Virus record (IMG/VR): IMGVR_UViG_3300037296_000114
Span: 1-61,371 of that record
Strand: one strand, 5' to 3'
Length of the DNA: 61,371 bases
Source of the DNA: a virus
Lineage: Duplodnaviria > Caudoviricetes
The notes beneath the pieces were generated by a model. That model was not told where the DNA came from and did not search any database. It saw only the letters and a program-made list of their open reading frames with translations. Below, piece by piece: positions 20,518 to 54,052 of this stretch. The position numbers and the translations under genes were made by a program. How positions within the stretch are numbered: position 1 is the first letter of the stretch; every line of letters begins with the position of its first letter.

Positions 20518-20534
20518 TGTTGCACTGTGCAACA
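20518..20534. promoter_or_regulatory. Putative repressor operator (perfect palindrome) at the early rightward promoter
   Basis: TGTTGC-ACTGT-GCAACA. Confidence 0.75.
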
Positions 20535-29197: not shown

Positions 29198-29434
29198 CTA
29201 TGGGTCGGGGTCACCTTCGTCCACCTCTTCCGGCAGGACAAACGGAACCCAGCTATTCGGGCAAACAATCCCACCGGTTGCGATGTGGATTTTTTGCTGT
29301 GTGCGCCCGCCTGGTGTTCGCTTACCGCTCAAGATCAAGCTAAGATACGAACGACCGATTCCCAGATGCTTCGCAACAACGGCTTGCGATGCGTCTGGAA
29401 ACTTTGCGGAGATATACTGTTCAAGTGTCATCAT
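29198..29434 (-). CDS. cro: Cro-like HTH regulator
   Basis: MTLEQYI...QAVVAKHLGIGRSYLSLILSGKRTP...IHIATGGIV; divergent from the repressor. Confidence 0.85.
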   Translation of the reverse strand: MMTLEQYISAKFPDASQAVVAKHLGIGRSYLSLILSGKRTPGGRTQQKIHIATGGIVCPNSWVPFVLPEEVDEGDPDP

Positions 29435-29437
29435 AAT

Positions 29438-29501
29438 AGTTGCCATTTGCAACATTTTGCAAAGCAGTGTCAACCGTCCTTATTGGTTACGCCTTGCAAC
29501 A
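29438..29501. promoter_or_regulatory. cro/cI switch: two operators and a cro promoter
   Basis: AGTTGC-CATTT-GCAACA (29438-54) and GGTTAC-GCCTT-GCAACA (29485-501); TTGACA on the minus strand at 29468-73. Confidence 0.75.
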
Positions 29502-29558: not shown

Positions 29559-29873
29559 ATGCGTGTAAGGATAGCAGAGGTCAGGAAGTCGCTTGGTGTC
29601 AGCCAAGGAGAACTTGCTGAAAGAGTCGGGATGTCGCGCCCGTACCTTGCTCAAATTGAGAACGGGACTCGCAACATGACAACAGCAAAGCAGGTTTCTA
29701 TCGCAGAGGCGCTGGGTGTCGACCCCGGCAAGCTGGTAGACTTCACCGCTCCAGACCCGAGTGATGAAGACTATTTATTGCAATCGTTTAGATCGCTTTC
29801 GCCACAACAACGAAGGGAGTGGTTGGATTTGGCCCGCGTGGCTACGGGGCTTGCGAAGCCAAAAGGCGGATGA
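29559..29873 (+). CDS. cI: XRE-family immunity repressor (104 aa, no S24 peptidase domain)
   Basis: IAEVRKSLGVSQGELAERVGMSRPYLAQIENG HTH with a short helical C-terminal domain. Confidence 0.85.
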   Translation: MRVRIAEVRKSLGVSQGELAERVGMSRPYLAQIENGTRNMTTAKQVSIAEALGVDPGKLVDFTAPDPSDEDYLLQSFRSLSPQQRREWLDLARVATGLAKPKGG

Positions 29874-29994
29874 AGTCTTTGCGCTGATCTGCTGTCATTG
29901 AGCGGAAAATGCGCAAAGCCTCCTGCACGTCCTTTTCAACCCCTGCATCTACCCTAATGTCTTCCTGCCTATTTCGATCCGCGCTGCTGGTCAT
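29842..29994 (-). CDS. 50-aa protein resembling the repressor C-terminal domain; candidate antirepressor (not in ORF track)
   Basis: AGGGGAG SD; DVQEALRIFRSMTADQRKDFIRLL vs repressor DEDYLLQSFRSLSPQQRREWLDLA. Confidence 0.7.
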   Translation of the reverse strand: MTSSADRNRQEDIRVDAGVEKDVQEALRIFRSMTADQRKDFIRLLASQAP

Positions 29995-30075
29995 AGCAAA
30001 CTCCCCTATTGGATTTCATCAAAAAAAACACGGCGCGCCGATCAAACTCTAGCGAGAAAGGCAGCGCGCCGATTG

Positions 30076-30194
30076 TGTTACATTGCGCAACAATTAGGCA
30101 TGATGCAACACTACTACACGGTTTTTTTGACCGGCTCTAGTCAAAATCAGTATTTTTTATTGCATTCCGCTGCTACTTGTTGCAAATAGTAACA
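30076..30194. promoter_or_regulatory. Divergent promoter region with operators
   Basis: TGTTAC-ATTGC-GCAACA (30076-92), a half-match at 30094-110, TGTTGC-AAATA-GTAACA (30178-94); TTGCAT at 30160. Confidence 0.7.
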
Positions 30195-30216: not shown

Positions 30217-30516
30217 TTGCATGATGCAATCAAGAGCGATGCAGGCGCAGCGCCTGTAGATAAAAAGCTGGTGGAGTTGATCGACGCCACCATCCACCTA
30301 TTCGCACCCATGAAGGACGGCGGGAAGTACATCGCCCTGATCGGGAATATGTCTTATGCCTTCAAGGGCAACACGCCTCTAGCTGCGCACAAACGCGCAG
30401 ACGACTGGCGCAAGGGTGAGTGGGAGAAGATCACCAGCAAGGCGCACCGTGAGCGGCATGCCGCAACAAAAGCGCCAGCGAAGGCGGCAGCATCCGCAGA
30501 TGTGGTGCAGCCATGA
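30217..30516 (+). CDS. Hypothetical protein
   Basis: GGAGG SD with TTG start. Confidence 0.6.
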   Translation: MHDAIKSDAGAAPVDKKLVELIDATIHLFAPMKDGGKYIALIGNMSYAFKGNTPLAAHKRADDWRKGEWEKITSKAHRERHAATKAPAKAAASADVVQP

Positions 30517-34993: not shown

Positions 34994-35230
34994 TCTACTT
35001 GGGGGGTAAATTGGGGGGTGGCGAAAGCCGCCCCTTTTTCTTTGCTATAAAAATAGGGGCTTTTCGCTAAATTCAACGTGCCCACCACATGCACATTGTA
35101 GCTGTAGCAACATGTAGCATGAGCGAAATATCCCCATAATATGTTGCACCATGTAACACTCGCGGCTACAAAGCCCATGCAACGCGTATCATCGCAGCGC
35201 CCTCTACTTGGGGGGTAAATTGGGGGGGTG
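34994..35230. other. attP: arm-type direct repeats flanking a putative tRNA-3'-end core (35077-35087)
   Basis: TCTACTTGGGGGGTAAATTGGGGGG(G)TG at 34994-35020 and 35203-35230; CGTGCCCACCA between them; AT-rich IHF-like tract. Confidence 0.7.
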
Positions 35231-35243
35231 CTTCTTGGCAGGA

Positions 35244-36434
35244 ATGAACAAATTGACCGCCGTAGCGATCAAGGCTGCGCCGGTAGGGGTGAAGTTACAG
35301 GACGGCGGCGGGCTGATATTGGAGCGCACGGCCAGCGGTGGGCGCTGGATATTCCGCTACTCGTTTCAGGGGCGGCGCCGTGAAATGGGGATAGGCTCGA
35401 TGCCCGACGTCAGCCTGTCCGCAGCCCGTAGCGCCCGCAACGAGTGGGCCGCCATTCTGAAAACCGGCGTCGATCCTATCGTGGAGCGCCAGCGCATGAA
35501 GGACGAGGCCGCCGCAGAAGCAAGCCGCCACGATCCTACATTCGGGGAAATGACGCAGGTGGCGTTTGAGGCCCGCAAGCAGATACTGCGCGACGATGGA
35601 AAGCGCGGAAGGTGGTTATCGCCAATCTCGATCCACGTTCTGCCCAAGATCGGGTCTCTCCGCGTTTCCAATCTGCACCAGCGCGATATTCACGACGCCA
35701 TCGACCCGATATGGCGGACCAAGCACGAAACCGCGCGCAAGGCTTTGTTCAGAACAAGATTGATTTTGAAGCATGCAAAGCTGTCAGGGTACGATGTTGA
35801 CCCATTCATATGCGATGCTGCGCAGCACATGTTAGGGCACTATGATCACGTCGAAACTCCATTAGCTGCGACGCCGTGGCAGGATTTGCCTGACCTGTAT
35901 GAGACCCTATCGAGCAAGCCTCACCCCTCATATCTAGCGTTGCGCTGGATCATCCTCACCGTAGCGCGGAGCGATTCGGCGCGCGGGGCGCGGTTCAGTG
36001 AGATTGAGGGCGACGTCTGGACAGTGCCAGCCGACCGGATGAAAGGGCGGCGCGGCAAGGTCCAGCCGTTCAGGGTTCCGCTTTCAGGTGCCGCAATCAG
36101 TGTGGTTGAAGAGTGCCGGGAGTATGCGCGCGGTGATCTGATGTTCCCATCGCCTCGAAATGATAGCGTGACAGGTTACATTCTGACAAAGACACTCAAG
36201 GATTTAGGCGAAGCCGGTAAGCCGCATGGGTTCAGGACCAGCTTTAGAACGTGGACGCAGGACACAGGGCAACCGTGGGACGTGGCGGAGACTGCGCTAG
36301 GCCACGTCATCGGCGGGAAGGTGGAGCGCGCTTACGCTCGGTCAGACCTGCTGGACCGGCGAAGGATCTTGCTGGACCGCTGGGCCGCGCATGTAACTGG
36401 CAGCACGTCCAACGTGGTGGCGTTGAAGAGGTAA
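35244..36434 (+). CDS. int: Tyrosine integrase, P4-like with arm-binding domain
   Basis: DGGGL..W.FRY...REMGIG arm domain; catalytic R...RMK...HGFR...ALGH...AY. Confidence 0.95.
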   Translation: MNKLTAVAIKAAPVGVKLQDGGGLILERTASGGRWIFRYSFQGRRREMGIGSMPDVSLSAARSARNEWAAILKTGVDPIVERQRMKDEAAAEASRHDPTFGEMTQVAFEARKQILRDDGKRGRWLSPISIHVLPKIGSLRVSNLHQRDIHDAIDPIWRTKHETARKALFRTRLILKHAKLSGYDVDPFICDAAQHMLGHYDHVETPLAATPWQDLPDLYETLSSKPHPSYLALRWIILTVARSDSARGARFSEIEGDVWTVPADRMKGRRGKVQPFRVPLSGAAISVVEECREYARGDLMFPSPRNDSVTGYILTKTLKDLGEAGKPHGFRTSFRTWTQDTGQPWDVAETALGHVIGGKVERAYARSDLLDRRRILLDRWAAHVTGSTSNVVALKR

Positions 36435-39549: not shown

Positions 39550-42500
39550 TTATTTTCCTGACAGCAGCGGCGCCGCGTCGTCCCTGATCCGGTCGTTCAG
39601 TTTCGGATTAAGCTGGATGCCAAACTCGTTGCGCACGCTGGCCCGCTCCCTGCCCCCGATTGACTGTTTTAGGCTCTTGCTTGTGATCGGGTACTCGGGA
39701 ACGCGCTCATTGAAGTCTTTGACCTTTCCAACAACGCTCTCTGGCAGGCCGCGCCCCTTCATGACGGATTTTGCGGCTTCCTTCATAATCCCGCTGCGCT
39801 CCTTCATGATCCGCTTCTCTTCGTTCTTCATACGCGTGTTTGCGTCGTACCGCTCGGACAGGCGCGCAGGCGTGAAGCCGATTGCCTGACCGATGATTTC
39901 GCCCGTTCCAAACGTGTCGATGATGGGATCTCCGTTGTAGGTCTCTGCTCCGTCCACGGCATACCGGCCAGCGCGCATAGGGTCTCGGATGAATTTCGGG
40001 ACCATAGTTTCAACGCCGCGATACGCCTTGCTGGCGTCGCCCTCGCCCACACCCTCGGCCAGCGTGTCCGCGCCCTTGAGGATGCGCACCGCCATGCCCG
40101 GCACCGCGCCCAGAAGCTGCATGATCCAGTAGGTGTATTCGTCCTCGCCCTCCAACTCGCGGTCGGAACTGCGGAACCATAGATCAGGCATACCGATGCG
40201 CGACCGCAGGTCGATCCCAAGAGCCTGACCGGGCACGCCGTTCAGCATGGCGCCGACAACGGGGCGAGGAAGGTAGGCGGACAGCGCCTTTTCCATCTCC
40301 TTTTCGGCCTCGTCGCCGCCTCCAGCAAAGAACATTCCGGCGAACATCATCAGCAGCGAGTAGCCCCATGTGCCCTTGATGCCAGCGTTCAACATCATCT
40401 GCGCGGTGATCCCGACAAGCTGGCGCCGCGCCTCGTCTTTTACCGCCTGATTTTCGGCATTAATTGCTTGGTGAGTGTCCCTGAAAAGACGCCACAGCAT
40501 GTTGATCTGGAAATTTTTGAAGACTAGAGCCACCCTTGCCGTGTCGTTCTGCATAAGTCTCGGGCGCGACGTGTTCTGATAATCGAAGTGGGTTTTCCAC
40601 GTCAGGTCCGATGCAGCTTTCACCGCTGCATCCTGATCCATGCCCTTCTCCTTGGCCATGCGGTACGCTGCGAGGAATGTTATCTCGCGGTTGGCGCGCT
40701 CCGCATGGTGGAACATGTAGGATATGACGCCCATTACCTTTGTGCGGATGGCGCTATACTCAACACCGCTATCACCGATACCGGCCAGATCATGCGACTG
40801 CGACCTGTCGATCGCTCCAATATCGTATGCCGTATTCATCGCCGCCTTTTCGTTGGCCGTGATATGCTTGCTCTCCGTCAGGTGTAGCTTGTCCGCCCGC
40901 GTGAAGTCTGCCGCAGCTTTCGTCAGCGCCGCTGCGGCCTTCGCCTGTCCACCCTTCCCGTGGAACGCCCCAAGGACAGGGATGCCGACAACAACGGTCT
41001 GCGTCATGTTCACCAGCGCCGCAGCCGGTGTCATGCCCAGATAGTAGACAAAGGCCGCGCTGGTGGCCGCTTGAGACCATGCCGCCCCCTTCGGGTTCAT
41101 CGTGTATTCGTGGCGTTTGTTGATTTCATCCACGACAAGCCCAGACCGCACAGGGTCGCTGTCTCTCGCAGCTTCCGCCTTCGCCACGGTCAGCGCCTCT
41201 TCCATATCCAGCGAATAGGTAAGCCGCGCCAACTGGTGCGCGCTATGGAACATGTGATTGCCGTATGCGCGGAAAGCGTCGCCGGAAAAGCCTGGGGTGC
41301 CCTTGCGGTGGATCTTGGTCTTGCGCATGGACATGTCTGGGAGGGTCATAAGCCACCGCTGCCAGATCGCGTCCATGATGGCGCTGTCTGCGTCGATGCC
41401 GTCCAGCAGGCCGGTAATGTCCGCGACAAACGCAGGGTCCACGGCGTCCCTCATGGTCTTGGTGGTCAACACGCCGGTCTCTACGTCGTACCCCTGCGCG
41501 CGAAGTTCCTCTGCCGCCTGTCGCTGCTTTCTGGCGCTCTCGAACAGGCTGAAACTGACAACCTTCTTGTTCTTGTCGCGCACTGTGACTTGGAATTGAC
41601 CAAAGCGAGACAGTGGAAAGTACGGCCCTTGTAGTTTGTTGCTCTCGAACCGCTGGCGCAACTGGCGCAGGCGGGCGAGATTGCCCCAACCGCCCTTCTT
41701 TACGACGGTCGCAAGTTCTGCGTCCGCGTCCGCGATTGCATCATCGCGCACCTTGCCGGTCAGCCCCTCATCGTCAATCTCCTGCATGCGCTCGGCGTGC
41801 GCGCGCTCGGCCCGCCGCTTGGTGACCTCCATCGCCTTCGCGGCATTGGCTACAATCGCCTCCTGAAAGTCCCTGTCGATCTTGTCGTACCCGTCGCGCA
41901 CATCTCGATACATGTCGCGGTATGCCTTGGGCAGCGCGTCAAAACGCTCTTTCAGGTCGTCATAATCCCGCTGCCGCTTGGCCTCCTTCCGCAGCCGGTA
42001 GTTGGCCGCCTTGTAGCCGTATGTGCTGGGGTCGCCGTTGCGCACGGTCGCCTCGTCAGTGGTGAGGGTGATAGGGTTGTGCGGAAGTGTCGGGTCGATC
42101 CCCGCAATGGTGCTGTCGTGCATAATATCCATGAGGGCAGTATTCGACTTGCCGTCTGCCCCGATCAGCTTCCGCCAGCGCTGCGCCAGCTTGTCTGTGT
42201 CTGCGTGCTTTTCGTTGCGCAGGGTATCCATCTTCTGTTTCAGCGCTAGGTATGTCTGTGCGGCCGGAATTTTCCGGCCCATTTCAGCAATGAGGGGGCG
42301 GCCCGGGACAAGCGCCAGCAGGTTCATCCCCGACTTGCCCGCCATTGCTTGCGTCAGCACATCGCTCACAAACTGCTTGGACGTGGCCGCAGCCTTTTTG
42401 GCTGCTGCTTTGCTCGGTGCGCGGCTCTCGCTCACTCCGCCGCCCGGTCCCGTCGGGTTTGGATCACCGCGACCAGCCACGCCCCCATCAGCGATGGCCT

Positions 42501-45500
42501 GCATGACAGACGCTTGGCTGTTGAAGCCATTGCCGCGCAGCACGTTCGCCAGCGCCTCAAAGAATGACTTGATCTTAGAAATGGGGCCCGCCTCTGTGTC
42601 GCCCCCTGCCTCGCGCCACATGCGGTATTGCTCCGCGATGTTTTCCTCCATCAACTGTGCGCTGTTCAGATCAGGATACAGGCCAGCCACACGGTCCATT
42701 GTGGCTTTGTCAGCCCGCGCAGCACGCACCAGCGACTTCCATTCTGCGGCGGTAAACAGGCCGTAGGGCTTGCCCCATAGTTCAGCGTCGCGCAGCGCGT
42801 GGATGATTTCGTGACGCAGCGTACCAACGGCCCCATTGGCGGAACGCGCCGACACCTGAATAGCGCCACGGCCTTTGGCGTATGCGCCCTGCACCTCGCG
42901 GCCCTCCGCCAAGTTCATCACCGTGCGCAGAACCTTGGCCGGAACCTTCCCCCGCAAGCCGGTTGCTGCAATCTCCGCGTCAACGTCCGCCTGTATCGAG
43001 CGCAGTTCGTTGTTCGTCAGCGCCGGGGGCGGCGTGTCTGGGTCAACCATGCCCCAGCCTGCCGGTGCGCGCGATTCCTGCGTTCCAAAGTCTGGCAGTG
43101 TCTCGCCCGTGATCGTACGCGCCTCGTCCTTATGAGTGCGCGCTGTCAGAACCGTGCCCAGCGTCTCCTGATAGACCTTCAAGACCGCTTTCAGGTTCTC
43201 GGCATTGAGCCGCTTGTTGTATGGGCCAGACCGCGCGGAGAAGTCGCCCGCTATTTCGCGCACACGAGGGCTTAGAATGTATGGCTTCCCACCCTTCTTC
43301 TCAACGGTCATGAGGTAGTCGCCGCTGTAGGCGCGCTGCACCTTCAACACACCATCTTCTGACGTGAGAAGCGCGGGCGCGTCCCGATGTCCCGCCGTGT
43401 CAACAAATTGCATTGCCTGATCGAGGTCGCGGAATGTCACGTCCTGATCTTGCAGAGCCTTCTCCGCGTCGAAGTCCTTGGGCATAAGGATGCCCTGCCC
43501 CGTCGTGCCGTCGTCCTTGGTGTAGATCACGATTTGACCGCGCCCAAACTTCTCAAAGCCACCGATGATGTTGCCGGTGACAATCTGGCGCTTCTCGCGG
43601 GTTTCAGCCAAGCCGTTCGTAAACGCCCGAGTGACTGTTGCCTCATTGGCGTTCATCACGTCGTACTGTGATTCCTGCCCTGCAAAGCGAAGCAGCGGGA
43701 CGTTCAGTGTGCGCGCGGGGCTGGCAAGCGCAATGCTTACCTTGGCGCGGCCTAGAGCGGTCGGGTTGCCCTTCATCTTTGAAAGATCGACCCCCAGCGC
43801 GATACCATAGACGCTATCTACAGTGCTGCCCTTTTCCAGCACGTTGACCATCACAGGCTTGCCCACCTTGAATTTGTGCAGGAGGTCTTTTGTATCGGAC
43901 ACAGCCTTATCAAAGCCTGCAATTCGCTTATCTAGGCGGTTGATAGCGTCTGCCGCTTTGTCTTTCTGCTTGTCCGTTTTCGCCTCGGCCAGCCGCTTTT
44001 CAAGCGTCGGTCGCATGGCCTCCATCTTGTCTTTTTCAAGAACGGTCATTTCATTTATGGCGTCGATCTGACTTGCCATATGGTCGGCAGGGGTTTGACC
44101 GCCAAGCGCCTTGGACACCGAATCCGCCACCTGCTCCAGCGTCATAGGCTTGCCGATAACCTTCACGTCAACATCTTCAAGCACAGTGTCTCCGCCAAAG
44201 GCGCTGGACAGCTCTGTGCCCTCCGATACGATGGTGCGGCTTTCTGTGCGGGCGTCCAGTTCAACAACCTTTGCCTCAAGGCCGTTTTGCCCCATGCTAT
44301 CCAGTTCCTGAATATAGGACGTGTATAGGGTCTCAATGTCGTCAAAAATTTCAGCAACCTGTTTCGGGTCGAGGATCGCCAGCTTGCCTGTGAATTTGGC
44401 GGCAATGCCATCTGCTGTGCTTTTGTTCTTGGGGATAGCAACGCCGGTCAGCGCCGCCAGTTCTGGGTTTTCACGCAGGTAATCCAGTACGATTTCATCG
44501 CCATACTTGTTCATGAAGTCGGTCACGTTATCGAGGCTTACCGCCGACTTCTTGCTGGCCGTCGTGTTGGCGTTGAGTGATGCCATTTTCTTCATCAGCA
44601 CAGCAGCCGGCCGTTTTTCTACGGCGAGGTCGGAGACGGCAATCGTGTACTTTGGCAACTCGATCTGGCCCGTCCGGTTGACCCGGCCCAGCATCTGCAT
44701 GAAGGTGTCGATGTTGGGGTCGGGTTGCAGGATGAACATGTGGCGCACCTTGCCGTCGTTCTTTGCCGTCGCGTGCAGCGAGAAGCCGGTGGCGCCAGAC
44801 CGGTTGATAATAAGCGCGTCCATTTGGCCGGAATTAAACTGGTTCATCTGACGCTTGTTCGATGCCGCGCTGCTGTCACGGGACGCATACTTGCCGTCTT
44901 TGATGATCTTGCCGCGTCCGGTGACCTCGCCCACGTTCATGCCTGCTGCTGACAGGCGGTCACGGATATAGTCGATTGGCGAAGCTGGCATGCCTTGGAA
45001 GTCTACGCTGTCGATGTAGGCTTCAACGCGCTTCAACTCTTCCAGTGCAAATTCTCCACCGTGGATAGACACGTCCATATCCGTCATGTTGACATGCTCT
45101 TTGGTGTTTTCGTCAATCTTCACCGTGATCCGGCGCAGGCGCTGGACGTAGCGGCGCAGAATCTCGTTGAATGGAATATCGAAGTCGTCACCGATAGCGA
45201 TACCCTCATCTGACGCATAATCCTCCATGATCGCCGCGTTGGTGTTTGACAGGGCAATGATAGGCTTTTCGCCTCGCTTGTGGGCTTCAATCGCCTTATC
45301 GACTACTGCCTCGGCCTTGATCGCCAGCAGAACCTGATTGACGGCGTTGTGCATGATCGAAGAGAAGTTTGTGCTGGATGCCCCGGCGTCTCCGACTGCA
45401 TTGTCCGAGGCCACACCTTCGCCTTCGTCCTTGTAGGTTTCAGCAAAGGATTCGCGCGCATCTGTCATGAAGTTCTGATCGAGGGTGAAAATCTCACGCA

Positions 45501-48500
45501 GAGACTTTGCGCTATCCGCAGCAAGCAGTGGGTCAGTTTCCATCTGCTCAAGGTTCATGCTGATCCCCTCATATGTCCGTTCGCGGCGCAGATACTGGCC
45601 GTCTTGGGTCAATGAGGACGACATGATCTGTTGCAACGGGACACCGCCCTGCGTGATAATGTCTTCCAGCTTGGAAATATCAGGCGCAGCCAACTGAATG
45701 TTGGTTTTGAAGTACAGCGACATGACGGCTGGGTTCTTTGCAAAGGTCGCAGAAGAGAAGAAAACTCCATTCTCCGAGTCCGCCAGCAATCCACGGATGA
45801 ACACAGAGCGCGGCTCCGGCCCCTCTGGGTCAGTGCGCCCAGCCGCCGTGCCGCCTGCTTCGTGGCTTTCGTCCAAGATGAACATGGCATTTGGCGCAAT
45901 GGCTTTGATCGCGTCCATGCGCTCCGTAACCTTGCCTTTCTGGGTGTTCATCTGGTCGTAGGTCGTGAAGATTACCTTCTTGCCCTTCGGCAATTTGCTG
46001 GTCTTCCTCAATGCTGTGATCGCATTGCCTTGCGCGGCCTTTGTCAGCGACATGAGTTTGTCCGCTGGGTTGTCCTCGGAAAGAGGAATTGCCTTACTGC
46101 CGCGCAAATCGTTGGTCGGGAAGGCGTACTTATCCGCGTCCTTCTCGCCAATGTCGCGCAGATCGCGAACCATATCACCAAACAGACCGGGCTTAACCGT
46201 GACGAAAACAGGCAACTTACCCGAACGGATGGCGTAACGGATCATAGCTGCGTTAATCCGGCCCTTCCCTACGCCGGTCTGGTCCCCGATGATGAAGCCC
46301 TTGCCATTTTCGATGTTGTCAATAGCAAGGGCCGCCGCGTCGACCTGCTCGGCGCTGAACGCGCCCTGTGTGCCTTCGGTGCCTTTTGTCGTGGGTTGAT
46401 TGAGCGCGCTATGGAAAGCCTGCATTGCAACCTTGCCCTCTTCCCCAACCCAAGACCAGACGGTATCGCCGTCCGTAATGTCAAAGTCCTCGCCAAACAT
46501 ATCATCAACGCGACCGCTGCTGATATAATTGTAGATAGAGTTAGATATGGAAGCATCGAAATCGAACGCCTGTGTGGTCCTCTCATCCCAAAGCGCGATG
46601 TAATCGCCAGTCATATCATCCCAAAGTCGAATTTGGATTGAGTTGTTCGATGATGATTTACTTACATTACGAACAGCCCTCGCGTGTATCTCAACGCTGT
46701 AACCCTCTGGAGTTTGGACGCCCCCATACGAAGCCCAGCCGCTCTCCCCCTCTGGCGCGCTCCATTCATCCATAGCGTTCCCAAAGTGAAGTATTCCGTC
46801 AGTTCCTTGCGTGCCTTCGGTGCCAAGCATTTCATCAATGGTATAGCCCAGCTTGTCAGCAACGAAGCTGTCAATATCGCCAACGCGCGCCTCAAGTTCA
46901 TCAAGCGCGCGGCTGGCTGCCTCCTGCATGTTTTTTGGGACAAGGGTGCCTACGGCAAACTTCGCACCGGAGCGCGGCGCATACTGCACCTGAAAGTCTG
47001 TTTCAGCCTCTTGGTTGTCGCGCTCTACCGGCTTCCGTTTTACGGGTAGAGGTTTGCCAGAAATGTCTCCAGCGTTTCCACTTGGAGCGCCTGCATTGCT
47101 TCCTTGCTGTCCTGCATTGCTTCCGGCTGGATCGGCCACGTCTGGACGCGCCCCGCCGTCTTGTTGTGCAGTGTCTCGCTCTCCATCGCCAGAAGGTGCC
47201 CCAGATTGCGCGGGTCGTCCGCTGGTGTCAGGCTGTCGTTCTCCCACATCGGCGCTGCTGCCATCGCCACGGGGTCCAGATTGTCCGCCTGCGCTTGGGT
47301 TGCCAGTCGGTCGATCTTGTCCGCCAGCAGGCCGCGATACGCCACCAGCGTCAGGGGCTTGACCGGTTTGCGCATCCGTATCGCCCCCAGATAGTTCTCG
47401 CTGCCCTCTGGGGTCCAAGTTATCCGTGCGTCCATCGAGCCTGCTCCTGAAATCTAGCCAGTTGGTATAAACCGTTGGTGCTTCCTTCATAGGATACACC
47501 TTTTCGGACGGTTTGCGACCATCAATCACGATCACGTCAACCGGCCAGCCTGCACCTTGCCGCTCGTACAGGCGCCCGTCAACGGTGAAGTGTTCCGTCA
47601 CATTGTAGGTATCGTACAGTTTCTTGTAGAATTTGCGCGATTGAGCGCCACGATACTTCGCCTTGCGTGCATCCGCGTCGCCTTGGTGTCCGCCAACGAT
47701 AAGGACCGCCTTGCCGTCTGGCTTCATTGCATCCAGCGCGCGGAAGGAAATAGCGTGGTCAATCTCCGTCGTGGTGCCATCCTGCCCAGAAATGGGGAAT
47801 TTGACTGTTTTTCCGTCCTGCATCTTCACCTTTCCGAATGGCGGGTTGGCGATAACCACGTCCCTCGCCCCCGGCTGATCTACGGTCATGGCGTCGGCGT
47901 TGGTGATCGTCGCCCCCGGCAGTGCATTGCGCAACTGCCCGTAGCGGTCTGCGTTCAACTCATTGGCCGTGACGTTGGTGTCACTCGCAGAGATTGCCAG
48001 CATGCCATTGCCCGCGCTCGGCTCGTAGATCGTCGTGTTCTGGTCGATCCCGACAAGGTGCGAGGCGAGGAAGGCCAGCGGCGCGGGCGTCGAGTACGCT
48101 TGCTGCTCAATGCTGGTGCTGGTGCGCTGCGCCAGCTTCGGTTGTGAGGCGTAGAGCGCAACAAGATAACCGTATTTCTCCTTTGGGCTGCCATCCTGCG
48201 CCGCAATCGCGCGGGCACGCTCAACGATAGCGGCCTCGATCGCTTCCTCCACCATCTTGAGGTCAGGCTCGGTCAGCGTGCGGCCAAGAACCTCGGCGGC
48301 CTCTTTGCGCGCCTGCACGATTGTCGTGTACGATTTTCCGTCCTTGAACGCGGCATAGAAATGCCTGGTGATCTTCGTGCGCTCCGCCTGCCCGCCAGCC
48401 TTGAGCGCGGGGGTCGGTTCTGTTGTCGGTGTGGGTTCTGGCGTCGTCTCTGGCTTTACCTCTGCCGCGCGCAGATCCCGAACCGCCTGCAAAACCTCTT

Positions 48501-51500
48501 GGCTGGTCTGCATGCCGGTAAGGTCCTGACCGTCGAGGTCCATGTCGTCGCGCAACTGGTTGTAGGCGTTGCGGGCGATGGGCTGCGCCTGCTCAAGCGT
48601 CAGGCCAACGCCGTCCATAAGAGCCTTGATGAAGTCGGTAAACCGGCGCTTACCCTGCCGAATGTAGAGCGTGCCCATACGATAGGCGATCTGCACCAGC
48701 TTTGGGTCAAGCCCGCTGTTGATCTGGCCCTTCATCATCGCGGCCATTTCGGCCTCAAGGGCGTCGAGTTCCGCGCTTTCTGCTTCGGACAGGCCCGCGC
48801 GTTTCTTGACCGGCTCTTGATTTTGGGCGGTGCTTTCCTGCGCCTCGCCTTCGTTTACTGGCGCTGCGTTCTTGATCGGCTTTTCGTTTTTGGACTGCCG
48901 CTCAACCTCCGGCCCGAATATCGCCTGCTTGAGCGCTTCGTGCTGGTCTCCATCAAGCGTCTTGGACACATCTGAAAGCATAGGTATCTGCTGGAATAGA
49001 TCGCTGACGCCTGCATTTTTCAGGGCGGTACGGCGCAAGTCTGGGTTGTTTGTCCACCACCAATCCATACGGCGGGGACCGCGCGGTTGTGGATTGAGCG
49101 GTTCAGTTTGGTTGCTGTCAGCCTTCACGCCCAGCGGCCCCATGCCATCGAGCGGCGCAATCTGCGGCGGTGACTTGCGCGGGGCTGGCTTTGGTCGCGC
49201 TTCCTTGTTGGCGTTAAGTTCCGCCTCAAATTCTGGCGTAATGAATAGGAATTGACCACGGCGCACGATCTTCTTCTGCTCCAGCAGTTTTGTCGTGACC
49301 CAAAGCGCCTCTGCGCGGTCATACTTCGGGATGCCCTGCGCCTCATAGCCTTCGCTGTTGGCGGGGGTTAGTGCGAAGCTATTCCCCTGCTGCGTGCCGC
49401 TCACCATGCCAGCCTTCGAGACAAGTTCGTCAATTCGGCTCTGTGTGGGTTCGGTCGTTCCCGCGCTTTCCAGTAGGCGGCGAGCCTCGTCGGGCTTCAT
49501 TTTCTGAAACTCAAGCCCCATAGTTACCTGCTGGATAACAACCTGTTTCAAATCATCGGAAAGATCGGCGGGCTTTTTCGTATCCTGATCCTTGAGCCAG
49601 CCCTTGAAGCTGGAAACGTCCGTGCTGTTGATCCCGCCCATGCGCTTGTCACCGGACCCATCGGAGAACCCAGCGCGATACAGCTTCAAAGCCTCGTCTT
49701 GGCTGGTGGTGCCCAAGATAACCTTATGCTCGTCAAACTTACCGGTTTTCGGGTCGACCTGATTGATGATGTGAACCGTGTTGCTGTCGGGGTTGTCGCC
49801 CATGTAGAAGTCGATGGGGTCACCATCCGCGCCCTCGGTGCGTTTTATGTCGCCGTAGTGCGCGGGCATGGTCACAGACCACTCATTGCCGTCTGGGTCC
49901 GTGCCCTTACGCTCTCCCCCCTTGGCAGTCTCGATCACCAGCGGCATACCGTTCCATGAGAACCGGCCCTTCTTGTAATTCCCCGCCTCTGCCTGCGCGG
50001 GTGTCGGCTCTGGCGCTACCTGCGCGGCCTCGGCCTCGATCTTGGCGGCAATTTCGTTTTTCCTTTTGATCCCAGCCCGCTCGCCGTCTACTTTGCGCTG
50101 ATTGTCAAATTCAGCCTGTTTTTGCATACGCTTGACCAGTTCCTGCTGTTCAAGGATGCGCAAGCCTACGTCTTTACCGCGACGGCCGTTTGAAACCATG
50201 CCCTCTGACGCTTGTTCAGCCTTCATGTCAGACAGATCGTTCAGCGCGTCGGAGAGTGCATAGCCGCTATCTCCGACTTGTGGGCGCGGGGTGCCGTCAG
50301 GGGGTGTCGGGCCGGTCGGCGCCGGTGCCATCGCGGCGATAGCGGCCTCAACCTTGTCGGTATGCTTGCGGGAGAAGATGAACCCGCCCGCGCGCTCGTC
50401 CCATTTCAGGGAGATATTGCCCACGTCTGGCGGGCTGTCTTTGGGCACGCCTTTCAAAACGGCCGCTTTCTCGCGGATATTTTCTATGGTGGGATTAACC
50501 GCGGGGATTTGTGCGGGGGCTGCGACACTAGGCGTGGCAGGAGGCGTGTCGAACATGTCGGTTTGATCCCGCGCGCCGGTATCGAACAGGCCAAAGTCTG
50601 TGGCCGCGTCGCCGCCGCGCTTGGGCTTTTTGGCTTGGAGTTCAGCGCGGTCCTTGTCAGTGACCGGAGCAACGCCCTCGATCAGCGTCTGTTCGCCTTC
50701 CGGTGTCTGCTCTGTGGCTGGCTGTGTGGACTTGAGGGCGCGGTATCCAATCGTGTCCAGTTCCCCGTTCACAATCTCGGTGAGGCTGGCGAGGTCCGTC
50801 CATGCGTCCCCACCAATGCCTTCTTTCGTCAGGCCCACCTGCTTTGCCGCGTGGCGGGCTTTGGGCAGGTTGCTCCACCAGCGGTCCTGTAGGGCTGGCT
50901 CCGGCCCTACTTGGGCTGTTTGGCTTCCAGCGCCGTCAGGATTTCCATCTTGCGCGCCGCCTGCGCCCTCTGTTCCGGCGTCGCGTTCGGGTCGCTGTTC
51001 ACCTTCTGCGAATGGGTCCGTACCAACTGCGCCGTCTTGTCCCTGTGTTTCTTGCTCAAGGAGAGGGGGGCCGGAATTTTCGCCGTCGTCTGATTGTTCT
51101 GTGGCACTGGTTTGATCCTCTTCAATCCCGTTTCTCAACTGCCACCATACAGCATCCTCTGCAACGCCGCCATACTCGCGCAGGCGGGCGTCAATCTCGT
51201 AGTATTCCGTCGGTGTCAGGGTGATACCAATGCGCTGCTCTACGCCGGTCAGGACGGAGCGCATGCGGATGCCGTAGTTTTCGCCCGCGTCGAAGTCGTC
51301 CATTTCAGAATACGGGGCCATCGCTACTGTTGCCCAATCCTCTGAAATGGGGTCAATCTCGATCATGCCCTGATCATCGACGGCAATGCCTTGGCTTTCG
51401 AGTTCAGCCATTTCCGCCTTATAATCAGCGACGGCCTGCGCCTCGATCTGGCTTGTATCCTGCACCGGACGGCCTGCTGCCTCTTCGGCCAGCGCACTAA

Positions 51501-53736: not shown

Positions 53737-53766
53737 GGCAAACCTCTGCATATGCGGAATGTGGCC

Positions 53767-53785
53767 GCACATCTTGCGCGGGTAT
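53767..53785 (-). promoter_or_regulatory. Putative late promoter motif, copy 3 (upstream of the giant gene)
   Basis: GCACATCTTGCGCGGGTAT, identical to 38578-38596. Confidence 0.7.
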
Positions 53786-53827
53786 GTTGGCGCAACGTAG
53801 CAGAGAGTTAGGCTGTCGGGAAGATGC

Positions 53828-54052
53828 TTAGACTTTGTCTTTGCGCCTGTCGACGGTCCATTCGCGGCGACGGTCTTCCGACCGGACCATGAAGACAGTA
53901 GCCACAACGCCAGACACGGCACCAATGACAGCGGACAGGGCGATATTTCCAGTGATTGCGAAGGCGATAACCCCAAACATTGAAATTAGGCCAATGGCCC
54001 CGAAGATGTAGCCAATAGCTATGGCGACGTTCATGCGTTGAAAATAATCCAT
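53828..54052 (-). CDS. Small two-TM membrane protein (moron-like)
   Basis: 74 aa, hydrophobic with basic tail; AT-rich upstream region with TTGCAT-N17-TATCTA. Confidence 0.7.
   Translation of the reverse strand: MDYFQRMNVAIAIGYIFGAIGLISMFGVIAFAITGNIALSAVIGAVSGVVATVFMVRSEDRRREWTVDRRKDKV

Follow-up and report, generated by a model that had tools for sequence, protein, structure and literature searches.

How does a temperate phage leave lysogeny when its repressor carries no self-cleavage domain? Many prophage repressors are short XRE proteins without self-cleavage, and the start of their induction is mostly unexplained. Prophages of roseobacters are plentiful in the sea; bacterial mortality and gene transfer are both shaped by their induction. 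The question is posed in concrete form by the IMG/VR record IMGVR_UViG_3300037296_000114, a whole virus of 61,371 bp, rated 100% complete; the entire record is referred to below as the window. Its immunity region contains a gene for a CI-like XRE repressor of 104 amino acids (aa) and, convergent with this gene, a small open reading frame (ORF) of 50 codons that overlaps the last 32 nt of the repressor gene. A first-pass annotation, made from the letters alone, took the 50-aa peptide for a mimic of the repressor's C-terminal domain and proposed a lysis-lysogeny switch of the SinI/SinR type. The analysis reported here indicates that the small ORF is a conserved gene and that its product is related to the tail of the repressor family. 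We consider it somewhat probable that the phage uses the product of this gene as a tail-mimic antirepressor against its own repressor.

An integrase gene is present at 35208-36434 (phrog_1, E 9.3e-34), and the phage is therefore temperate. The closest relatives of the repressor are encoded in the genomes of Sulfitobacter, Thalassovita, and Lutimaribacter, and in a Pseudodonghicola metagenome-assembled genome. The host is thus very likely a member of the Rhodobacteraceae.

Results

The small ORF is conserved in its reading frame

The small ORF begins with ATG, is preceded by a Shine-Dalgarno (SD) sequence AGGGGAG, and runs from 29994 to 29842 into the 3' end of the repressor gene; the sequence bears out the first-pass annotation in each of these points. 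Of the 36 long ORFs of the window, 19 are followed by a convergent ORF of 46 aa or more that starts 45-130 nt past the stop codon; at this base rate, the position of a convergent ORF counts as evidence only when the ORF is conserved. The GC content by codon position (0.60/0.40/0.58) is like that of the repressor gene, but is too weak as evidence. DNA of tail-containing repressor homologues came from three sources: three of the five relatives in a scan of genome contigs, three of 25 in a metagenome scan (one of them ending at a contig edge), and 12 of 401 Rhodobacteraceae genomes, which had a repressor-family match at E <= 1e-12 when searched in six frames.

The clearest copy of the small ORF was found in a prophage of Thalassovita litoralis (locus L016, 4433-4179, minus strand), whose repressor is 62% identical to that of the window. 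The place and the orientation of the ORF relative to the repressor gene are as in the window, and it has its own SD and ATG; the ATG lies 121 nt past the repressor stop codon, which is the same distance as in the window, and is preceded by GGAGAGGA. While BLASTP produced no alignment of the two peptides, Smith-Waterman comparison gave a score of 59 versus 23.8 +/- 4.5 for shuffled sequences, and none of 5000 shuffles was as good.

The overlap with the repressor gene suggests another way in which the locus could act. The convergent transcript itself might be the regulator, through polymerase collision or through pairing with the repressor mRNA, with the ORF being secondary or serving to tune the RNA. 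The ORF and the repressor gene overlap by 32 nt in the window, 137 nt in L016, and 74 nt in L030, a metagenome phage syntenic with the window, which would suit this explanation. Between the repressor stop codon and a hairpin at 30031-30073 there is no plus-strand terminator, and the repressor mRNA is therefore likely to run antisense through all of the small gene. An antisense role was also what was first proposed for aimX, a small phage gene considered below, according to the preprint describing it (bioRxiv 10.1101/2025.11.23.689978). The pattern of conservation argues for a protein instead. When the 151 nt past the repressor stop codon were translated in six frames in both the window and L016, the pair of ORF frames scored 58, while none of the other 35 pairs exceeded 30; the DNA of the two downstream stretches was identical in 86 of 160 alignment columns, and third codon positions were near random. 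In the case of aimX, recoding of the overlap was without effect, whereas a start-to-stop mutation abolished function, as the same text reports (bioRxiv 10.1101/2025.11.23.689978). We regard an RNA regulator as quite unlikely, and note that peptide and antisense mechanisms could coexist.

A profile search (HMMER) of 1.84 billion cluster representatives returned 11 matches at E <= 0.001, three of which are small proteins: the window peptide, the L016 ORF, and a protein of 46 aa, P0022 (E 1.2e-4), which has 19 of its last 32 residues in common with the window peptide. P0022 and a 104-aa repressor, P0028, each come from a 4347-bp ENA contig, and P0028 sits in the 90%-identity cluster of P0002, a repressor that is 92% identical to that of the window. 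The last nine residues and the stop codon of P0022 can be read antisense to the last codons of P0028, with the two frames related to each other as they are in the window. Such a reading is also possible on P0002, and on none of eight other homologues. The pairing of P0022 with P0028 rests on the 4347-bp contigs of both and on this antisense compatibility.

Despite their divergence, the three copies retain their frame, an ATG, a purine-rich SD, and the helical core, and replacements in them are conservative. Given that relatives keep the ORF and that conservation is specific to its frame, we conclude that the small ORF is a real gene, conserved in its reading frame, but rare. It could still be supposed that there is no functional gene at this place, the ORF being open by chance or being an inverted copy of the repressor 3' end that is decaying. 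The high base rate of convergent ORFs would fit, as would the lack of any Pfam or PHROG family match for the ORF, the failure to find a promoter, a terminator-like hairpin just upstream, and the absence of the ORF in half of those cases where the DNA following a repressor homologue could be read. Speaking against it are the features that three diverged copies share, the specificity of the six-frame test, and the fact that the third member improved the match to the repressor tail (see below). We consider the absence of a functional gene very improbable.

Other searches extended the family no further. A word-based protein search with the window peptide found the peptide itself only, a search for the peptide profile in IMG/VR gave none out of 62 pattern matches, and contigs matching the stretch came from the probable source sample, apart from a 188-nt piece over cro, so that no relative spans the small ORF.

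The peptide resembles the two-helix tail of the repressor

The HTH_3 match of the repressor, a helix-turn-helix (HTH) family, covers residues 5-58 (52.5 bits versus a cut-off of 23), and no second domain was found in Pfam. In an AlphaFold2 (AF2) model, with a mean predicted local distance difference test (pLDDT) of 84, the XRE HTH helices occupy residues 5-52, a linker residues 56-66, and two C-terminal helices residues 67-78 and 82-95, the tail helices reaching a pLDDT of approximately 90. The best PDB match of this model in Foldseek, and the only one at E <= 0.001, was 1b0n_A, i.e., SinR in the SinR/SinI complex (E 2.1e-4, 98 columns of 103 residues). By analogy, the tail may dimerise the repressor. 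It is conserved in 11 full-length homologues with 54-92% identity (P0004, for instance, is 76% identical), with the family consensus APDxxDExYLLQSFRRLxPEQRKEWLDLARVATG and with F77, R78, Q84, R85, A92, and R93 invariant. An IMG/VR search with the repressor revealed relatives at the level of the HTH only, and the INPHARED phage collection contained no DNA match.

The first-pass annotation had aligned the peptide with this tail without gaps and had noted that it contains no HTH. Both statements held. BLASTP of the peptide against its own repressor gave an ungapped alignment with 7 identities and 14 positives in 18 positions (E 6e-4 for the single pair), Smith-Waterman alignment gave 40 versus 20.0 +/- 4.0, with eight of 5000 shuffles being as good, and a Pfam search of the peptide gave no HTH family. 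Since the 61-kb window contains many small ORFs, the likeness within this single genome (p of approximately 0.002) is borderline. The annotation had also pointed out that the two similar segments lie in different DNA, and so they do: residues 64-92 of the repressor are encoded at 29748-29834, and residues 17-45 of the peptide at 29946-29860. The DNA of the two segments is identical in 33 of 87 positions (14, 17, and two of 29 at codon positions 1, 2, and 3, respectively). The likeness therefore exists at the level of protein, and is not due to an inverted DNA repeat or an RNA hairpin.

It is the comparison with relatives that lifts the finding above chance. In hhalign, the three peptides matched 12 repressors with a probability of 89.5-91.9% and E from 2e-6 to 7e-7. 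The score was 36.2; 300 shuffles of the alignment columns gave 10.3 +/- 2.3, with 17.9 as the highest value, and the reversed peptides gave 10.3. Addition of the third peptide sharpened the match from E 1.9e-5, obtained with two peptides, to 2e-6. The register is ungapped and places peptide residues 16-45 on repressor residues 63-92; R31, Q37, and R38, invariant in the peptides, fall on the invariant repressor residues R78, Q84, and R85. In its AF2 model, the peptide forms two helices (residues 4-32 and 35-48; pLDDT above 90 at residues 21-40), and the turns of the peptide hairpin and the repressor-tail hairpin coincide in the hhalign register. These data support the view that the peptide is homologous, or at least significantly similar at the profile level, to the two-helix tail of the repressor family. 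Structural searches with the peptide added nothing: Foldseek with its model returned no match at E <= 0.001, and the best ESM Atlas score was 0.78, with no lead.

A tail-mimic antirepressor is the favored explanation

A conserved gene without HTH, the likeness of its product to the repressor tail, and SinR as the best PDB match of the repressor make a SinI/SinR-like action the best reading of the locus by analogy. The mechanism that we envisage is as follows. By analogy with SinR and AimC, the tail hairpin of the repressor would pair subunits, so that two HTH domains bind palindromes of the type GTTRC-N5-GYAAC, putative operators that flank both early promoters. The small protein, which would amount to little else than the tail hairpin, may take the place of the second repressor subunit. 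A heterodimer with a single HTH should be unable to hold the operators, and both the cro-side and the rightward early operons would be released. The convergent transcripts, if extended, would be antisense to each other's gene, and mutual interference may add to the effect. Binding of the peptide to the tail, the resulting loss of DNA binding, and the timing of expression are each presumed in this scheme.

The proposed heterodimer was evaluated by co-folding the repressor tail (residues 56-104, 12-row alignment) with the peptide (2-row alignment). The score was 0.38 in each of three runs, compared with 0.00, 0.00, and 0.17 for controls; the runs agreed in at least 88% of contacts, and partner pLDDT was at least 67. 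In a calibration, 58 of 80 solved complexes and two of 110 mismatched pairs attained the mark passed here; only seven of those 80, but both mismatches, did so at scores of 0.60 or below. These counts apply only approximately here, as our alignments were self-made. As the structure of SinR/SinI has been solved, resemblance to that complex may account for the pass. The peptide-repressor heterodimer of the first-pass annotation thus gains weak support from modeling.

Several observations weigh against an antirepressor. First, the co-fold pass belongs to a weak class, in which most predicted complexes turn out to be false unless there were prior grounds to expect them. Second, similarity is not partner-specific: the window repressor ranks seventh among the 12 repressors for its peptide, and no co-variation was found between the two proteins. 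The L016 peptide compares poorly with its own repressor, with 108 of 5000 shuffles being as good and the best alignment being out of register. Third, the family is tiny, with three clear members, and only one of the 401 sampled Rhodobacteraceae genomes has the small ORF, whereas 12 have a repressor-family match. The synteny of repressor gene and convergent ORF is retained in the T. litoralis prophage and is lacking at three other repressor homologues (loci L015, L017, and L028), the neighborhood being different in L017. Convergent ORFs are, as noted, frequent in the window. Finally, expression of the gene is hard to account for: a terminator-like hairpin followed by a run of eight T lies directly upstream of its SD, and no promoter-like site for it could be found on its strand, even at eight of 12 matches.

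The evidence for a gene and for its likeness to the tail says nothing about the effect of binding, and a real tail-related protein need not be an inactivator. It might assist the repressor as a co-repressor or as a subunit that stabilises it, influence looping or the choice of operator, act as a decoy directed at the repressors of related phages (anti-immunity), or have an unrelated partner. The peptides resemble the family consensus rather than their own partners, which would suit cross-reaction with related repressors, and the operator-like palindromes at 30077 and 30179 are 102 bp apart, a spacing that suggests looping tunable by a tail-binding protein. A hairpin devoid of an HTH would, on the other hand, add no DNA contacts, and both HTH-less copies or binders of an XRE oligomerisation domain that have been studied, SinI and AimX, inactivate their partners in the accounts that the sources give (PMC3163267; bioRxiv 10.1101/2025.11.23.689978). 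A tail-related protein with one of these other roles appears unlikely to us, and the tail-mimic antirepressor remains our preferred explanation.

If it is correct, the principle of SinI and AimX operates in alphaproteobacterial phages too, and does so without a communication system. Genes of this type would be recognisable from sequence, as they still resemble the repressor tail, which provides a rule to search for antirepressors below the usual ORF cut-off: a convergent small ORF with a profile match to the C-terminal helices of the neighboring repressor. The locus would, moreover, illustrate plainly how a regulator can arise from part of the protein that it acts upon.

No other device for induction was recognised

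The first-pass annotation had stated that the repressor has no S24 autocleavage domain and that no canonical LexA box is visible. Neither statement had to be changed. Peptidase_S24 was found neither in the repressor nor anywhere else in the 61-kb genome. The genome likewise contained no ANT domain and no M78/ImmA (PF06114) match at E <= 0.1 (a control search found the family in eight of 14 genomes). No LexA-type box was present in the immunity region with up to one mismatch, either as GTTC-N7-GTTC, the alphaproteobacterial LexA consensus, or as CTGT-N8-ACAG. With no S24, M78, or ANT domain and no LexA-type box, the peptide would be the sole recognisable route for inactivation of the repressor. 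What hints at SOS-independent induction, as had been proposed, is this set of absent motifs and absent domains.

Relation to known antirepressors

In B. subtilis, sinI is found upstream of sinR in the same orientation; in contrast, the two genes of the window are convergent and overlapping. SinI itself is described as a small protein without HTH that shares sequence with the oligomerisation domain of SinR, and formation of the heterodimer abolishes DNA binding, as stated in PMC3163267 (see also PDB 1b0n). Like SinR, the window repressor is predicted to consist of an XRE HTH, a linker, and a two-helix C-terminal domain; like SinI, the candidate antagonist has no HTH, is tail-like in sequence, and is encoded next to the repressor gene. 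The window locus differs in belonging to a phage, and no match to the Pfam SinI family PF08671 was obtained, either at E <= 1 for either protein or at E <= 10 in a six-frame search of the genome, whereas a control search matched the family in B. subtilis above the cut-off. The SinI/SinR-type switch of the first-pass annotation therefore survives as an analogy: the conserved gene, the tail likeness, and the structural match stand, and membership in the family does not.

The closest published system appears to be AimX/AimC of Bacillus arbitrium phages, whose layout is closely mirrored here. According to the preprint (bioRxiv 10.1101/2025.11.23.689978), the AimX/AimC/AimL systems contain a short XRE repressor of 80-140 aa, without cleavage domain, divergent from a cro-like gene; AimX is encoded by an ORF of 29-80 aa that is convergent with AimC (with a 30-bp overlap in phi106) and follows a terminator region. 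AimX binds the C-terminal oligomerisation domain of AimC, and the heterodimer blocks oligomerisation and DNA binding. AimX peptides are said there to diverge faster than their repressors. The window shares with this arrangement the short XRE repressor without cleavage domain divergent from a cro-like gene at the head of the replication operon and, behind a terminator-like element, the 50-aa convergent ORF with its 32-nt overlap, all of which is seen here at the level of genes, and in L016, too, a convergent small ORF follows the repressor gene. AimC (PDB 9iaq, chain 9iaq_D) was among the Foldseek matches of the repressor model, at rank 35 with E 7.3e-3, which is the general level of the XRE fold.

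There are also differences. The host is alphaproteobacterial and not Bacillus, the window contains neither aimR nor aimP, and upstream of the ORF there are 222 non-coding bp followed by genes of the opposite strand, which code for a 99-aa protein and a DUF3799 protein. The predicted tail of the window repressor is a plain two-helix hairpin, while the C-terminal domain of AimC contains a beta-hairpin and is reported in the preprint as a new fold. AimX takes its partner's place, and the text of the preprint gives no sequence homology between AimX and AimC, although some AimX may resemble AimC; in our case, homology between antagonist and tail is detectable. No LexA box was found here.

The principle, then, is already known from SinI/SinR and AimX/AimC; what is new is its apparent occurrence in an alphaproteobacterial phage, in the absence of arbitrium genes, and with detectable homology to the phage's own repressor tail. 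Other small phage antirepressors, such as Qtip, the Vibrio small-ORF modules, GfoA/GfhA of Gifsy, Tum of 186, and Coi of P1, inactivate cleavable or non-cleavable repressors by direct binding and not by RecA-stimulated cleavage, and their genes are located elsewhere in the genome or are controlled by LexA or quorum sensing. To our knowledge, none of them copies the repressor's own oligomerisation domain. In the literature collection that we searched, no account of an antirepressor that is SinI-like or mimics a repressor tail turned up for phages outside Bacillus; small antirepressors of Vibrio phages are mentioned in the preprint text (bioRxiv 10.1101/2025.11.23.689978).

Organization of the immunity region

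The features of the immunity region are listed in Table 1.

Table 1. Positions of genes and putative regulatory elements in the immunity region of the window
Feature	Position	Strand	Basis and remarks
Cro-like HTH gene	29198-29431	-	HTH_3 E 5.1e-5; phrog_35; divergent from repressor; heads leftward operon
Operator-like palindrome between cro and cI, overlapping leftward promoter-like site	29439-29453		motif count, repeats
Second operator-like palindrome between cro and cI	29486-29500		motif count, repeats
CI-like XRE repressor, 104 aa	29559-29873	+	HTH_3 (PF01381) E 4.9e-14
Stretch coding for repressor tail (residues 67-95), presumed pairing surface	29757-29843	+	AF2 model, Foldseek
Small ORF, 50 aa, ATG start, candidate antirepressor	29842-29994	-	ORF reading, homologues, hhalign, AF2
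SD of small ORF, AGGGGAG	30001-30007	-	read in sequence; 6 nt before ATG
Terminator-like element: 10-bp G+C stem (~30031-30073), then T8 (30028-30021)	30021-30073	-	fold; repeat D4
Operator-like palindrome GTTACATTGCGCAAC	30077-30091		motif count; repeats I2, D1
Sigma-70-like promoter site TTGACC-18-TATTTT of rightward operon	30127-30156	+	consensus match only
Operator-like palindrome ahead of rightward early operon	30179-30193		motif count, repeats

The 15-bp palindrome GTTRC-N5-GYAAC occurs six times in the window, versus 0.35 expected, and none of 100 shuffles reaches six. Four of the six copies lie in the immunity region (29439, 29486, 30077, and 30179); of the remaining two, one, at 35143, is ahead of the integrase gene, and the other is at 20519. 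The motif is also found in L016, at 3837 and 7541, and the cro/cI spacer of this Thalassovita prophage contains it. Operator-like sites upstream of the small ORF had been predicted and assigned a role in positive feedback; one full palindrome, at 30077-30091, is indeed there. It could equally serve the rightward promoter-like site, and positive feedback is possible as one of several readings.

The terminator-like element lies between this palindrome and the SD of the small ORF. Its stem consists of two copies of a palindromic word of the GGCGCGCC type; because of the long loop, it was missed by a consensus scanner. It has the shape of a terminator on the minus strand only, and on the plus strand a run of eight A precedes it. 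The hairpin is not conserved in L016, where no fold resembling a terminator was seen in the upstream region (z -0.33). The hairpin could be an attenuator that gates the peptide, or it could be a bidirectional terminator at which the repressor mRNA ends, this mRNA then being antisense to the whole small gene. Purine-rich sites ahead of the ATG are seen in L016 and L030 as well.

The leftward operon contains, after the Cro-like HTH gene (29431-29198), a DUF1064 gene (E 2.8e-16) and a gene for a 259-aa protein. The rightward operon starts at 30217, 222 non-coding bp away from the small ORF, with the gene for the 99-aa protein, followed by that for a DUF3799 PD-(D/E)XK protein. The first gene of this early operon, coding for a protein of about 83-99 aa without a Pfam or PHROG family, is kept in three syntenic phages (window 30217-30516, L030 3543-3836, and L054 1244-993).

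Convergent ORFs of other repressor loci

Convergent ORFs were also seen after distant repressor homologues in two other Rhodobacteraceae genomes (L058 1108-920, minus strand, 62 aa; L061 1422-1622, plus strand, 66 aa). These two ORFs are, by their sequence, clearly homologous to each other: their first 28 residues score 49 versus 20.0 +/- 4.3, a value that none of 5000 shuffles equals, comparison of the parts outside the repressor genes gives 40 versus 13.9 +/- 3.1, and both contain the motif F-x-E-[VI]-[LI]-S-x-L-[ST]-D-R-[QE]-F in a pattern of helix, [ST]-D-R-[QE]-F, and helix. A word-based protein search with the pair gave none out of four candidates and no gene-called relatives. Grouped with the ORF of L054, they compare weakly with the first subfamily (14.3 versus 7.0 +/- 1.7) and with the repressors (12.0 versus 8.2 +/- 1.4, three of 100 shuffles as good), in columns taken from a joint MAFFT alignment, which favors the real order. 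In a comparison of the L058 ORF with the tail of its own repressor, one of 1000 shuffles was as good, but the alignment was out of register and lay in the overlapping part, and it was not taken for mimicry.

In L054 and L030, which are syntenic with the window, candidates were marginal or non-significant. The convergent 56-aa ORF of L030 was rejected as a member, with 694 and 380 of 5000 shuffles being as good in comparisons with the window and L016 peptides, respectively; against the peptide hidden Markov model, 89 of 2000 shuffles were as good, and the ORF was not counted. The word LPEP, common to the L030 and L016 peptides, is the antisense of a conserved repressor motif and thus an overlap artefact. 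In view of the 19/36 base rate, none of the L058, L061, L054, and L030 ORFs was counted as a member. A match in genome G144 of the 401-genome scan lies inside a 311-aa frame and was set aside, and the eight long proteins among the HMMER matches (393-3237 aa, several matched stretches) were judged spurious; the one inspected, P0023, has a repeated TPR-like motif.

A broader proposal would join these observations: the antirepressor would have arisen by inverted duplication of the repressor 3' end, the two genes would form a toggle without a sensor, gated by the hairpin next to the operator and coupled through antisense transcription, and a hidden class of such genes would be general in alphaproteobacterial prophages, with the L058 and L061 ORFs and the marginal L054 and L030 ORFs as diverged members. 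Taken as a whole, we find this proposal doubtful. Were it true, tail-mimic antirepressors would be a general and overlooked way of induction for non-cleavable XRE repressors in alphaproteobacterial prophages.

Other observations

Two repressor homologues, with 65% and 64% identity (L015 2600-4315 and L028 3001-3740), stand alone beside an integrase gene or a tRNA-like stretch; their loci have neither cro nor the small ORF and are probably remnants at prophage ends. In L055/L065 (G154:C48:105240-105538), a repressor homologue extends over two frames (model positions 1-50 and 51-100); it is probably a pseudogene that arose by frameshift, within the remnant of a prophage. A 151-nt contig from the probable source sample carries 15 differences over the repressor gene (window 29658-29776), which indicates that a related phage coexists in that sample. 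Elsewhere in the window, the minus strand of 39550-53976 is occupied by one open frame of 4808 aa.

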